This document shows, piece by piece, positions 20,180-23,076 of a DNA stretch of 64,000 nucleotides. Origin of the DNA: Escherichia phage S127 BCL3. Below the pieces are notes generated by a model. That model worked only from the letters and a program-made list of their open reading frames with translations, was not told the origin of the DNA and did no database searches. Within the stretch, counting starts at the first letter, position 1; every line of letters begins with the position of its first letter. Where the stretch lies: sequence record OQ626344; one strand, written 5' to 3'. The position numbers and the translations under genes were made by a program.

Positions 20180-20207
20180 GATATTTTCTCCTGTTTTCTT
20201 TATTAGT

Positions 20208-20226
20208 GGCGGGAAGTTTTCCCGCC
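20208..20226 (-). promoter_or_regulatory. conserved leader stem-loop GGCGGGAA-N3-TTCCCGCC
   Basis: lies between promoter 20237-20264 and RBS; similar hairpins at 22336 and 23014. Confidence 0.5.
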
Positions 20227-20236
20227 TGTGTGTTTA

Positions 20237-20264
20237 ATTATACCTATTGAGATTTACTTGTCAA
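20237..20264 (-). promoter_or_regulatory. sigma70 consensus promoter (TTGACA-16-TATAAT)
   Basis: perfect hexamers on minus strand. Confidence 0.55.
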
Positions 20265-20514
20265 CACTATTTTTTAAATTATTGTGGCGCAAAATGTTTA
20301 AAATCTCTTCAACGTCATCAACACGGCGGCAATTTTTAAACGCTACCAATTGCCCCATGATTTTAATCACTGGGCGGCCTTGCCAGTGCCCCTGGAGAAA
20401 GCGCGCTTTGACTTTATCGGTGGAACTATCACGCCACCAAATGGCCTTGTTGTTGCAGTAGTAAAAATTATTCAGGACAACATCAACCTTATCAAAATTT
20501 TTTAATTTACGCAT
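20254..20514 (-). CDS. hypothetical protein
   Basis: 86-aa ORF; AAAGGAG RBS. Confidence 0.65.
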   Translation of the reverse strand: MRKLKNFDKVDVVLNNFYYCNNKAIWWRDSSTDKVKARFLQGHWQGRPVIKIMGQLVAFKNCRRVDDVEEILNILRHNNLKNSVDK

Positions 20515-20577
20515 GGCGTTTACTCCTTTCTCTCTTTGATGTGGTTAGTATAGCTAACCTGTTTAAGATGTCAAGCT

Positions 20578-20748
20578 TTAAATAAAATCACTGTCAAAAT
20601 ATAACGCCCCGTTTTCATCCACGATCTCGATCTTCTTCTTTCCTAGCTCCAGGATCATGTACCATGCTTGATCTTGTGCTGCCTCCAGGTTGTTGTACCG
20701 TGCAATATTTGCGCCTTTTTCTGTTACGTAAAACATTTTATTGCCCAT
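20578..20748 (-). CDS. hypothetical small protein
   Basis: internal ATG of ORF 20578..20817 with AAGAGGGA RBS. Confidence 0.55.
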   Translation of the reverse strand: MGNKMFYVTEKGANIARYNNLEAAQDQAWYMILELGKKKIEIVDENGALYFDSDFI

Positions 20749-20977
20749 GGTGTTTCCCTCTTGTTTGGAATTGCTCACAATGTAAGGCCTGTAAGTAAAC
20801 AACCTATAACAAAACATGGCCCCCTTTAAAATGCACTATGCTATAAAACGTTTGCCATGTCAATGATATTTTTAACGCCATAAAACGGCCCTAAGCGATG
20901 TTTTCAGGTTAAGAAAGGCGATTGCATAGGTAGGGGCCTTTATGGCGCTTGTGGGGCCAACCAGGGGCGATATCGGC

Positions 20978-21014
20978 GGGATAGAAATAAAAAGCCCCGC
21001 ACAATGGCGGGGCG
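20978..21014 (-). terminator. rho-independent terminator
   Basis: GCCCCGC...GCGGGGC stem followed on minus strand by TTTTTATTTCT. Confidence 0.6.
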
Positions 21015-21021
21015 TTGGTTG

Positions 21022-21219
21022 TTATCTGTCTTTATGGCGGTATCGTTCTGCCTGTCGTTCACGTTCCAAAAGTAGGCCAGGCAATTTACGATCATAATGA
21101 TTTCGCCAGATCTTTCCAAATCTTTTTGGCTTATTCAGTTTATTGTTACGCTGGCGGCGTTCCGGCAACTCTTCGGAATCATGAGGACGCTTTACAATTT
21201 TTTCGAAATTAATTTTCAT
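21022..21219 (-). CDS. small basic protein
   Basis: internal ATG of ORF 21022..21243 with AAGGGGGAAG RBS; R/K-rich. Confidence 0.6.
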   Translation of the reverse strand: MKINFEKIVKRPHDSEELPERRQRNNKLNKPKRFGKIWRNHYDRKLPGLLLERERQAERYRHKDR

Positions 21220-21562
21220 AGCTTCCCCCTTTACTGATTTCAATATTTGCCTGAATCGCCCGGATACGGCGTTTTATAACCTCCTGATCCGTGCAATCAT
21301 ACCCCCAAAAGTCTACAATTTTTGCGCCTCCAGCTTTTAAGCGGTATAGTGTTTCTTGCATCTTGTAAGCTGGGATCGGTCGTGGTGTTACCTGGTCGCC
21401 TTTCTCATCCTTGTACTTGATAATATAATCTTCATTGTCGTTGAATACCCAAAATGGGTATTCTGTAAAGGCGTTGCTCTCTTTTTCGTTTTTGGATTGG
21501 ATCTTGTTTACAATTAAAGCCGTAGCAATAGCGCCAATGATAAAACTTGCACCGCTGATCAT
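21209..21562 (-). CDS. hypothetical protein with N-terminal TM segment
   Basis: internal ATG of ORF 21209..21580 with AAAGGAGAAAG RBS. Confidence 0.65.
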   Translation of the reverse strand: MISGASFIIGAIATALIVNKIQSKNEKESNAFTEYPFWVFNDNEDYIIKYKDEKGDQVTPRPIPAYKMQETLYRLKAGGAKIVDFWGYDCTDQEVIKRRIRAIQANIEISKGGSYEN

Positions 21563-21587
21563 GTTACTTTCTCCTTTCATGGTGTTA

Positions 21588-21630
21588 ATAAATTATCTTT
21601 ATAGATGGCCCTGCAGCCAGGACCACCGAA
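21588..21630. repeat. degenerate copy of palindromic repeat R1
   Basis: CTTTATAGATGGCCCTG...AAAAAATAA resembles R1. Confidence 0.35.
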
Positions 21631-21637
21631 AAAATAA

Positions 21638-21883
21638 CTATTTCACAATGCCTACAAAACAGATCCCGCCTTCCCCGACGTAGGCAATATCGGTCACTTT
21701 GTAGTCGGTCAAGATCTGTTTATTCAGATCATTAATAAAATCGGTCATTGCGTTGGTGTAGTTGTCTTCCATGTCTAGGGAATAATCCCAGGTGTAAACC
21801 TTTTTACGTCCGAAGCCTTTTACCATGATCCGGGCGCTTTTGGTGTTGGTAGGGGCATAGTATTTGGTGATTAGTGCTGCCAT
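21638..21883 (-). CDS. hypothetical protein
   Basis: 81-aa ORF; GAGGAG RBS. Confidence 0.65.
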   Translation of the reverse strand: MAALITKYYAPTNTKSARIMVKGFGRKKVYTWDYSLDMEDNYTNAMTDFINDLNKQILTDYKVTDIAYVGEGGICFVGIVK

Positions 21884-21923
21884 GGTTTTAACTCCTCATT
21901 AGTTCAGTGTTAACAGTGTAAAG

Positions 21924-21971
21924 TTTACTTTATTGATGGCCCTGGAGTCAAGGCCATCTAAAAATAAATTT
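21924..21971. repeat. 48-bp palindromic intergenic repeat R1, copy 2
   Basis: near-identical to 17918-17965. Confidence 0.7.
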
Positions 21972-22311
21972 ACTCGTTTTCTTCCAGTTCTGCAAGCTCT
22001 TCTTTCACTTCTTCGAGCTCTGTCTGCAATTCCTGGTATTCTTCATCGTCCTCAATATCCAGGCTGTCGATGTAGTCGCTAAATCCGCAACGGTAAGCGA
22101 TAGGATCTAGCTCCTTGAGGATACGCGACGGAAGAAAAGAAATGTTTCCGATCATGATTTCGCCGTAGACCTCGTCTAACCATTCATCATAGTTTTCGTC
22201 GTACTTGTCCTCGTCGATTTCAAAGTTATCGATCTTGTTCTCAAGGTCCGCGATCTGTTTTTTCAGTGCGGCAACCTGAATAGCTTTTTCTGCGGCGGTC
22301 ATAGTGGTCAT
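21970..22311 (-). CDS. acidic protein, predicted coiled-coil
   Basis: 113-aa ORF; AAGGAGAAAA RBS. Confidence 0.65.
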   Translation of the reverse strand: MTTMTAAEKAIQVAALKKQIADLENKIDNFEIDEDKYDENYDEWLDEVYGEIMIGNISFLPSRILKELDPIAYRCGFSDYIDSLDIEDDEEYQELQTELEEVKEELAELEENE

Positions 22312-22335
22312 GGTGTTTTCTCCTTTTGTGTGTTC

Positions 22336-22351
22336 TGGGAAGTTTTCCCGT
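22336..22351 (-). promoter_or_regulatory. leader stem-loop GGGAA-N3-TTCCC (shortened variant)
   Basis: same position relative to promoter as 20208 and 23014. Confidence 0.4.
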
Positions 22352-22362
22352 TTACGTGTTTA

Positions 22363-22390
22363 AGTATACCGATTTAAGTTAGCTTGTCAA
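22363..22390 (-). promoter_or_regulatory. sigma70-like promoter (TTGACA-16-TATACT)
   Basis: hexamers on minus strand upstream of 21970..22311. Confidence 0.5.
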
Positions 22391-22510
22391 TTAAAAATTT
22401 AAGAAAAATTTTGCAAAACTGTTAGCGCTACTCATTAACATTTGCGCCAGGATGTAACCGACAACGCAAACGATAATAGTTACCTTTGTGTATTGGCGTG
22501 TAGTGCTCAT
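22391..22510 (-). CDS. small hydrophobic peptide (39 aa)
   Basis: ATG with AAAGGGG RBS; TM-like core. Confidence 0.4.
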   Translation of the reverse strand: MSTTRQYTKVTIIVCVVGYILAQMLMSSANSFAKFFLNF

Positions 22511-22543
22511 CTTAAAGCCCCTTTTTCGCTTAACTGAGATTAG

Positions 22544-22591
22544 TTTACTTTATTGATGGCCCTGGAGTCAAGGCCATCTAAAAATAAACTT
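22544..22591. repeat. 48-bp palindromic intergenic repeat R1, copy 3
   Basis: near-identical to 17918-17965. Confidence 0.7.
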
Positions 22592-22994
22592 AGTAAGTTT
22601 TCAGTACTTTCCCGTCCAACCTGTCAAGCTGGATCTCGATAGCTGCAGAAAACCTATTGTACACCACGTCGCCCATGGAATCCAACCAGTCTATGACGTT
22701 ATACACTTGCTCTTTGTTCTTGCAGGTCCGGATCCGTTTCATGATGTAAGCCGGATCAATATTGGTACTTTCGTTGGTGTTCCCCTGTACCTGATTTGCC
22801 GTATTAGTTACATCTTTAATGGCCTTTACCACCACCTGGAAGGGCTTTAAGGTGCCTTTTGCGTTCATCTCACGCGCTTTTGCGGCGCGGTTGTTATAGG
22901 TTACACAACGGCGGCAAATGTTCACTAAGTGCATGTCAATAATTTTTTCATCGTTTGCCAGTTCGTTCATGATGCGGCGTACGTTCTTATTCAT
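22590..22994 (-). CDS. hypothetical protein
   Basis: 134-aa ORF; AAAGGAAAAA RBS. Confidence 0.7.
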   Translation of the reverse strand: MNKNVRRIMNELANDEKIIDMHLVNICRRCVTYNNRAAKAREMNAKGTLKPFQVVVKAIKDVTNTANQVQGNTNESTNIDPAYIMKRIRTCKNKEQVYNVIDWLDSMGDVVYNRFSAAIEIQLDRLDGKVLKTY

Positions 22995-23013
22995 GATCTT
23001 TTTCCTTTGTGTT

Positions 23014-23032
23014 GGCGGGAAACATTCCCGCC
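23014..23032 (-). promoter_or_regulatory. conserved leader stem-loop GGCGGGAA-N3-TTCCCGCC
   Basis: between promoter 23043-23070 and RBS. Confidence 0.5.
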
Positions 23033-23042
23033 TTTTGTGATT

Positions 23043-23070
23043 AGTTTACTTGAATTTTGCAGCGTGTCAA
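23043..23070 (-). promoter_or_regulatory. sigma70-like promoter (TTGACA-16-TAAACT)
   Basis: hexamers on minus strand. Confidence 0.45.
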
Positions 23071-23076
23071 CAATTT

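Follow-up and report, generated by a model that had tools for sequence, protein, structure and literature searches.

A recurrent promoter-proximal stem-loop in early-gene leaders of Escherichia phage S127 BCL3 and related phages

Promoters, hairpins, and genes of the three modules

The minus-strand early arm of Escherichia phage S127 BCL3 (sequence record OQ626344), which is crowded with small hypothetical open reading frames (ORFs), carries a recurrent module in which a sigma70-like promoter is closely followed by a G-rich/C-rich hairpin of the form GGCGGGAA-N3-TTCCCGCC and then by the rest of the leader of a small gene. The exact modules are two, and one conserved weak relative accompanies them. 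The stretch analyzed, referred to here as the window, comprises 64,000 nucleotides and is colinear over its entire length with 92.7-137.9 kb plus 1-19.8 kb of phage rV5. Between positions 19000 and 24000 it shares 92-96% identity with rV5-like coliphages of the genus Vequintavirus (Phage 203, bov10K2, FV3, and rV5). Several early-arm ORFs have homologs in RB49/phi1-type phages.

The original prediction, made from the sequence alone, placed three near-consensus minus-strand promoters with 16-nt spacers in this arm, and all three are present. The promoter of module 1 (23070-23043) reads TTGACA-16-TAAACT and matches at 10/12 positions, that of module 2 (22390-22363) reads TTGACA-16-TATACT (11/12), and that of module 3 (20264-20237) reads TTGACA-16-TATAAT (12/12). 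AT-rich tracts lie 5′ of the −35 hexamers (aataaaaattg, aatttaaaaaatagtg, and ttcttaaatttttaa), and the −35 of module 1 is identical in 12 orthologs. The genes behind the modules are all of unknown function: an ORF194-like gene (22590..22994, minus strand, 134 aa, phrog_13245) follows module 1, an ORF192-like gene (21970..22311, minus strand, 113 aa, phrog_9294) module 2, and an ORF185-like gene (19556..20179, minus strand, 207 aa, phrog_5162) module 3. The genes neighboring the hairpins all run on the minus strand.

In the rV5 record (DQ832317), the module 2 promoter is annotated as P192, while the promoters of modules 1 and 3 and all of the hairpins are unannotated. The rV5 genome paper (PMC3606486) lists only promoters and terminators and does not mention the leader element. 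The record of phage Alma (OV101294.1) attaches a “terminator” label to the ortholog of the site 3 hairpin. A 285-bp “terminator” feature in DQ832317 (116195-116479) appears to be a coordinate error.

The two exact hairpins lie on the minus strand at 23014..23032 (site 1, GGCGGGAA-tgt-TTCCCGCC) and 20208..20226 (site 3, GGCGGGAA-aac-TTCCCGCC), and each begins 10 nt past the −10 hexamer. They occupy positions 11-29 past the −10, beyond the usual transcription start at ~7 nt, and a hairpin beyond the expected start site would belong to its own transcript. The earlier placement of the hairpin at the transcript 5′ end agrees with this position past the −10, the start itself being predicted from promoter geometry. 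Dinucleotide shuffles of the window give 0.00 expected copies of the exact palindrome against the two found, and the complete 138-kb rV5 genome has the exact motif only at the two equivalent sites. Zero expected copies together with conservation exclude a chance origin of the pair.

Leaders were folded from the expected +1 to just beyond the AUG. As RNA, sites 1 and 3 each form a single 8-bp hairpin of −14.6 kcal/mol (z −3.9 and −4.0, respectively), and the remainder of the leader, including the Shine-Dalgarno (SD) sequence and the AUG, is unpaired. On the sense strand no U-tract follows either hairpin, the tails being AACACAAAGG and ACTAATAAAG.

The same hairpin had been claimed at all three promoters, which is correct for 23014-23032 and 20208-20226 and incorrect for site 2 (22335..22350, minus strand). 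The latter reads CGGGAA-aac-TTCCCAG (sense aaCGGGAAaacTTCCCAGa; also given as CGGGAAaacTTCCCAG), begins 13 nt past the −10, and differs from the exact motif at 5 of 16 stem positions, so that a 5-bp GGGAA/TTCCC core remains. Its fold reaches −5.9 kcal/mol (z −0.6), with 47 of 200 shuffles as stable or more stable. A pattern relaxed enough to recover it shows no enrichment (4 found vs 1.5 expected, with at least 4 in 9 of 100 shuffles). In Serratia phage ChuuTotoro and in contig L065, homologs of the gene downstream of site 2 carry the perfect motif in their leaders.

Conservation and substitution pattern

For each leader, 12-13 Vequintavirus orthologs were aligned, and nucleotide diversity was measured by segment. 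It is 0.00 in the −35 hexamer, 0.00-0.04 in the stem arms, 0.03-0.04 in coding DNA, 0.05-0.16 in the promoter spacer, 0.13-0.18 in the 10 nt ahead of the hairpin, and 0.32-0.37 in the loop. On these alignments, the stem arms are under purifying selection and the loop is free. Among the loop sequences, tgt at site 1 is matched by its exact reverse complement aca, and aac at site 3 by gtt (orthologs L140, L148, L128, and L139), which points to inversion of the whole palindrome, independently at the two sites, by template switching or cruciform-type events. Such flipping indicates that loop identity is not selected.

Changes in the orthologous stems include one C>T that gives a U.G pair and the loss of one nucleotide, by which the stem shortens to 7 bp. 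Other stem variants (GGTGGGAA/TTCCCGCC, GGCCGGGAG/TTCCCGGTC, GGCCGGGGA/TCCCCGGTC, and GGCGGGGAG/TTCCCCGCT) pair only with sense-strand G.U, and the two haplotypes of the ORF184-like leader, GGGGCGAG/CTTGCCCC and GGGGCAAG/TTTGCCCC, each need one sense-strand G.U for full pairing. Paralogs also show G-C/C-G and A-T/G-C swaps. Pairs were counted by script; a MAFFT alignment of 26 family members misaligned the length variants. In a symmetric count of transition mismatches over promoter-proximal hairpins, G.T outnumbers A.C by 11 to 6 overall and by 9-11 to 0-2 in the two clear families, the A.C cases falling in doubtful hairpins. This excess makes base pairing in the sense RNA more likely than either an operator in duplex DNA or a terminator on the plus strand, and it suggests that structure, rather than dyad symmetry, is what the variants keep.

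Other promoter-proximal hairpins in the window

Promoter-like sites with a ribosome binding site (RBS) and an ORF behind them were surveyed and gave 28 candidate promoters. At least 9-10 window promoters have a G-rich hairpin 8-13 nt past the −10, and only 2 of these carry the exact stem. One example precedes the ORF184-like gene (hairpin 19490-19509, module 19490..19547, minus strand), where GGGGCGAG-atga-CTTGCCCC begins 10 nt past the −10 of a TTGCAA-16-TATATT promoter and folds with −15.0 kcal/mol (z −5.1). The longest-ORF call for this gene (19085-19501, 138 aa, start 19501) crosses the hairpin. A start near 19465, after the hairpin and the SD, as in the 126-aa rV5 annotation, is plausible and preferred over 19501.

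Other minus-strand hairpins include GGGGAGG-cact-CCTCCCC at 41251..41268 (TTGACT-17-TAAGAT, offset 11) and GGGGAG-aca-CTCCTC at 18200..18214 (TTGCAA-16-GATAAT, offset 10). Smaller ones on the same strand are GGGG-caag-CCCC at 16372..16389 (about 16375-16386 in the survey), 10 nt past the −10 of promoter 16424-16397 (z −2.6), and GGTG-aacaa-CACC at 23764..23780 (about 23766-23778 in the survey), after promoter 23817-23790 (z −3.0). A further small leader hairpin, GGCA-aaag-TGCC, lies at about 14853-14864, and a plus-strand case, AAGAGGGG-ttgg-TCCCTCTT at 5321..5340, follows TTGACA-17-TATCAT (z −2.9). Leaders with a hairpin measure 46-57 nt vs 29-36 nt for those without, a gap suggesting that the hairpin acts as a discrete insert of ~20 nt. 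Across the window promoters, the minimum free energies of sense and antisense leaders do not differ (Wilcoxon p 0.90), as follows from the main copies being perfect palindromes.

Occurrence in other phages

An exact-pattern scan of IMG/VR returned 115 loci, mostly T-tailed terminators of unrelated AT-rich phages; the 19-mer by itself therefore has no diagnostic value. About 8 of the matches lie directly after a sigma70-like promoter and ahead of an RBS, among them one in Escherichia phage 4MG (Seunavirus) and one in contig L065 (153 kb), whose downstream gene is an ORF192-like homolog with 37% identity. In Serratia phage ChuuTotoro, the exact stem with loop tgg stands behind at least 4 promoters, including that of the ORF192 homolog. 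Phage 4MG has the additional hairpins GCCGGGA-cggt-TCCCGGC, GGCCGGGAG-cgg-TTCCCGGTC, and GGCCGGGGA-ttg-TCCCCGGTC, and Klebsiella phage phi1_175008 (Stephanstirmvirinae) has GGCGGGAA-atgg-TTCCCGCC, GGCGGGG-ttgt-TCCCGCC, and GGCGGGGAG-cgg-TTCCCCGCT. A survey of a further 46 kb of ChuuTotoro and the Klebsiella phage added one exact copy. A Vibrio relative carries a small GGCA-ataa-TGCC hairpin at the equivalent spot before its ORF192 homolog.

IMG/VR searches with the three downstream proteins gave 2-8 related loci each; the distant ORF185 homologs found there (25-30% identity) have no such leader. Over more than 40 promoter-hairpin instances from the window, rV5, 4MG, ChuuTotoro, phi1_175008, and IMG/VR contigs, the hairpin begins 8-12 nt past the −10 (mode 10), and the distance from hairpin to AUG is variable. 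Promoter-associated stem-loops form a broader family in related large enterobacterial phages, to which the GGCGGGAA hairpin belongs.

Relation to promoter-early stem-loops

Promoter-early stem-loops (PeSLs) have been described in RB49/phi1 and other T4-type phages (Arbiol et al. 2010, PMC2839356; Comeau et al. 2014, PMC4122927). They consist of a strong sigma70-like early promoter and a G_N-loop-C_N stem-loop located between ORFans, close with an SD followed by a start codon, and fall into five positional subclasses, one of which is “downstream of the -10” (PMC2839356). Roles in attenuation and in ORFan shuffling by recombination have been proposed for PeSLs and in part demonstrated (PMC2839356, PMC4122927).

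The modules of S127 BCL3 share much with them. They are intergenic cassettes of an ORFan-rich early region and combine an AT-rich tract, a consensus sigma70-like promoter, and an SD with start codon. Their stable stem-loops have a G-rich 5′ arm and a C-rich 3′ arm, G-T pairs included, as do the sister stems GGGGCGAG, GGGGAGG, and GGGG. Several copies occur per genome, the position of the stem-loop varies, and there may be a link to gene-content differences between close relatives. Unlike PeSLs, they belong to a Vequintavirinae/Stephanstirmvirinae lineage that is not T4-like, the hairpin sits 8-12 nt past the −10, and a sense U-tract is absent. In 18 kb of phi1, by contrast, no stem-loop comes after its promoter; most sit between the two hexamers, cover the −10, or precede the promoter. 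A blastn search with the module matched Vequintavirus only and revealed no relatedness to the PeSL families of Krischvirus (RB49/phi1), PST, or nt-1. PeSLs in phages other than the T4-like ones were sought in the literature, with no relevant result. The element belongs to an already described type of phage regulatory cassette and departs from the known examples in lineage and in the position of the stem-loop.

Another repeated promoter cassette, tttatttttaGATGGCCttgactccaGGGCCATCaataaagTAAACT, is identical at 22555-22578, 21935-21958, and 17929-17952 and occurs as a variant at 21604-21627, all on the minus strand. It has the form GATGGCC-TTGACTCCA-GGGCCATC, with the −35 (TTGACT) in the loop of a 7-bp hairpin and a T-run before it. 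The layout is like that of the PeSL subclass overlapping the −35, and upstream transcripts may end at the cassette. Relatives hold an additional copy of this cassette before a further ORFan. In several intergenic regions of phi1_175008 (L142) and ChuuTotoro (L143), a GC-rich stem has the −10 in its loop or in one arm (e.g., GCCGCCgtttataataGGCGGC and GCCCCTttataataAGGGGC), a layout that matches phi1 PeSLs such as GGGAGTAgtaagaTACTCCC.

One difference in gene content was seen in the early arm. The 255-bp segment 20603-20857 is present in the window and missing from all six close relatives compared, and the 79-aa ORFan that it carries (20578-20817) has a promoter of its own (20863-20835). Its junctions overlap by 6-12 bp inside promoter sequence (attgaca), and the bounding promoter repeats have no hairpin. 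The segment looks like a cassette gained or lost through recombination between promoters. No indel bounded by GGCGGGAA hairpins was found in 13 genomes.

Proposed role of the hairpin

RNA-level control through a conserved 5′ stem-loop on early transcripts, as the original prediction suggested, is the best-supported reading of the element. There is about an even chance that the hairpin is the transcribed, 5′-proximal stem-loop of a composite early-gene cassette and protects or insulates the early mRNA. A fixed offset of 8-12 nt, constrained arms around a free loop, and pairing kept through G.U speak for this role, while the motif itself is found at only two of the three sites.

The cassette would be read, in order, as an AT-rich tract, a consensus sigma70 promoter, ~10 nt of A/C-rich initial transcribed sequence, the 8-bp G-rich/C-rich hairpin, a CA-rich unstructured spacer, the SD, and the start codon. 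Host RNA polymerase would probably initiate ~7 nt past the −10, giving an mRNA that opens with 2-5 unpaired nt (1-5 over the full range of offsets of 8-12 nt) followed by the −14.6 kcal/mol hairpin. Such a 5′ end would be expected to hinder RppH and 5′-end-dependent entry of RNase E, which would make for a longer-lived early message. The hairpin may also insulate the folding of the RBS region from upstream sequence, and on read-through transcripts from upstream promoters, it could serve the preceding cistron as a 3′ barrier.

The 5′-terminal stem-loops of E. coli ompA (hp1) and the T7 gene 10 leader shield mRNA from RppH and RNase E. Together with synthetic 5′ hairpin cassettes, these stabilizers share with the phage element a stable hairpin (near a predicted 5′ end in the phage case), an unstructured leader and RBS next to it, and, apparently, a conserved structure with an unconstrained loop. 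They differ in being sequence-independent, whereas the phage element, whose 5′ end follows from promoter geometry, keeps one particular 16-nt stem across genera. Placement past the expected start and the substitution pattern together make the role of a 5′-terminal stem-loop the most economical mechanism.

A possible motive for shielding 5′ ends, offered as speculation, is an Srd-like ORF in the window (50893-51942, plus strand) that matches the PHROG families “Srd anti-sigma factor” and “decoy of host sigma70”, given that Srd of T4 reportedly enhances RNase E activity against host mRNA (Qi 2015, cited in PMC4980113). The top match of this ORF is a family labeled HNH endonuclease, and its counterpart is rV5 gp11.

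Several observations weigh against a protective role. With 2-5 unpaired 5′ nucleotides, protection would be borderline under the ompA rule, which allows no more than ~4. A leader hairpin (z < −1.5) is predicted at only 8 of the 28 promoters, or about one-third, and site 2 has decayed to a weak hairpin yet is conserved in that decayed state. Two orthologs have disruptive C>A changes in the stem. The G.T excess is a matter of small numbers, several of the wobbles being terminal or loop-closing, and when four Serratia/Klebsiella loci were re-surveyed with terminal and loop-closing pairs trimmed, no internal G.T or A.C pairs were left. The same 16 stem nucleotides recur across genera amid diverged flanks, which hints at sequence-specific recognition, since a generic stabilizer would tolerate any stable stem. 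A search of the literature on rV5-like phages found no start-site, half-life, or reporter data, and one on rV5-like transcriptomics found nothing relevant.

Alternative explanations

The cassette may instead work chiefly as a PeSL, with the stem-loop mainly attenuating or terminating upstream transcription, the promoter and stem-loop repeat recombining ORFan cassettes, and any role at the RNA 5′ end being incidental. This explanation, which is compatible with 5′-end protection, is possible though unlikely as the main function. The architecture matches the PeSL definition, one subclass of which is placed “downstream of the -10” (PMC2839356), and the setting is an ORFan-rich early arm with genes common to RB49/phi1. 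The second repeated element, with its −35 inside a hairpin loop, and the relatives with hairpins over the −10 as in phi1 fit the same picture, as does the window-only 255-bp ORFan segment flanked by promoter repeats, although this sole indel seen is bounded by promoters without hairpins. The same module stands ahead of unrelated genes in different phages, the reverse-complement loops imply that the arms interact at the DNA level, and the four exact ChuuTotoro copies with one common loop suggest duplication or gene conversion; identical stems amid diverged flanks, however, speak for a selected stem and against a recent transfer of cassettes. The annotators of phage Alma call site 3 a terminator, but the lack of a sense-strand U-tract makes canonical intrinsic termination unlikely, and a terminator behind its own start site would cut its own transcript. 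The absence of sequence similarity to Krischvirus PeSLs and, in 18 kb of phi1, of stem-loops placed after the promoter also counts against this explanation. A sequence-specific binding site has a lower probability again. A dimeric repressor could use the DNA at +3 to +22 as its operator, or a phage or host protein could bind the RNA hairpin; either would switch a small early regulon on or off. A perfect dyad does lie directly downstream of the expected +1, its variable central 3 nt are typical of an uncontacted operator spacer, and it accompanies only 2-3 promoters in each Vequintavirus genome, a number suited to a regulon. The 16 stem nucleotides are identical in Vequintavirus, 4MG, ChuuTotoro, the Stephanstirmvirinae Klebsiella phage, and unrelated-looking contigs, while spacers, loops, and leaders are unrelated. 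Against an operator, the dyad, although perfect in most copies, is broken by G.T in several conserved variants that keep RNA pairing through G.U, stems of 7-9 bp and loops of 3-4 nt occur along with one-nucleotide deletions, and quite different stems take the same position at other promoters. A free, invertible loop would be unusual for the target of an RNA-binding protein, and no candidate regulator was identified. A broader, improbable version of this idea is that the invariant 16-nt stem (GGCGGGAA/UUCCCGCC) is the recognition element, as RNA, extruded DNA, or duplex DNA, of a conserved phage or host factor that co-regulates an early-ORFan regulon across Vequintavirinae, Stephanstirmvirinae, and related uncultivated enterobacterial phages. 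An example would be selective shielding of early messages while the Srd-like protein drives RNase E against host mRNA.

Antisense intrinsic terminators on the plus strand, or chance palindromes without function, are very improbable. A plus-strand scan does list both exact sites as terminator-like, with tails TTTTGTGATT and TGTGTGTTTA, and the element shares a GC-rich 8-bp stem and short loop with Rho-independent terminators, the identical 19-mer being T-tailed in many unrelated IMG/VR contigs. Unlike such terminators, the sense strand of the window and its relatives runs on into A/C-rich sequence and an RBS with no U-tract. The plus-strand T-richness mirrors, on the complementary strand, the A-rich start of the transcribed region and is reduced to TTGAT or TTGTT in other genera, the neighboring genes lie on the minus strand, and the G.U variants of the sense strand would be A.C mismatches on the plus strand. 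Chance is opposed by the zero expected copies together with conservation. A canonical intrinsic terminator, GCCCCGCCATTGTGCGGGGC then TTTTTATTTC, does occur at 20994-21013 (minus strand) between ORFs of the early arm and exemplifies the genuine terminator form in the S127 BCL3 genome. The hairpins recall lambda nut boxB and HK022 put in being promoter-proximal early-RNA hairpins of early operons with internal terminators (20994-21013). Unlike boxB, which is recognized by its loop, they have no boxA-like partner and an unconstrained, invertible 3-nt loop, and no N-like factor is known. A boxB-like antiterminator was rejected on account of the free and invertible loop, an RNase III site because an 8-bp stem is too short, and sequestration of the SD for want of complementarity and because the fold leaves the SD free. 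A search of Rfam gave no family match, the sole hit (19463-19534) being a sub-threshold chance match of 34 bits vs a gathering score of 94.

Implications

Phages of the rV5 type are widely used in therapy and biocontrol, and their early gene regulation is essentially unstudied. A simple stability model leaves one feature unexplained, the identity of the stem across genera, and a sequence-specific factor is possible. If the hairpin is a 5′ cap-like stabilizer carried on mobile promoter cassettes, database records that name the element a terminator would need correction, and the unit would offer expression design a compact, portable combination of strong promoter and 5′ stabilizer. The transcribed positional class would then gain a function at the RNA level, and the PeSL type of modular architecture would reach beyond the T4-like phages.

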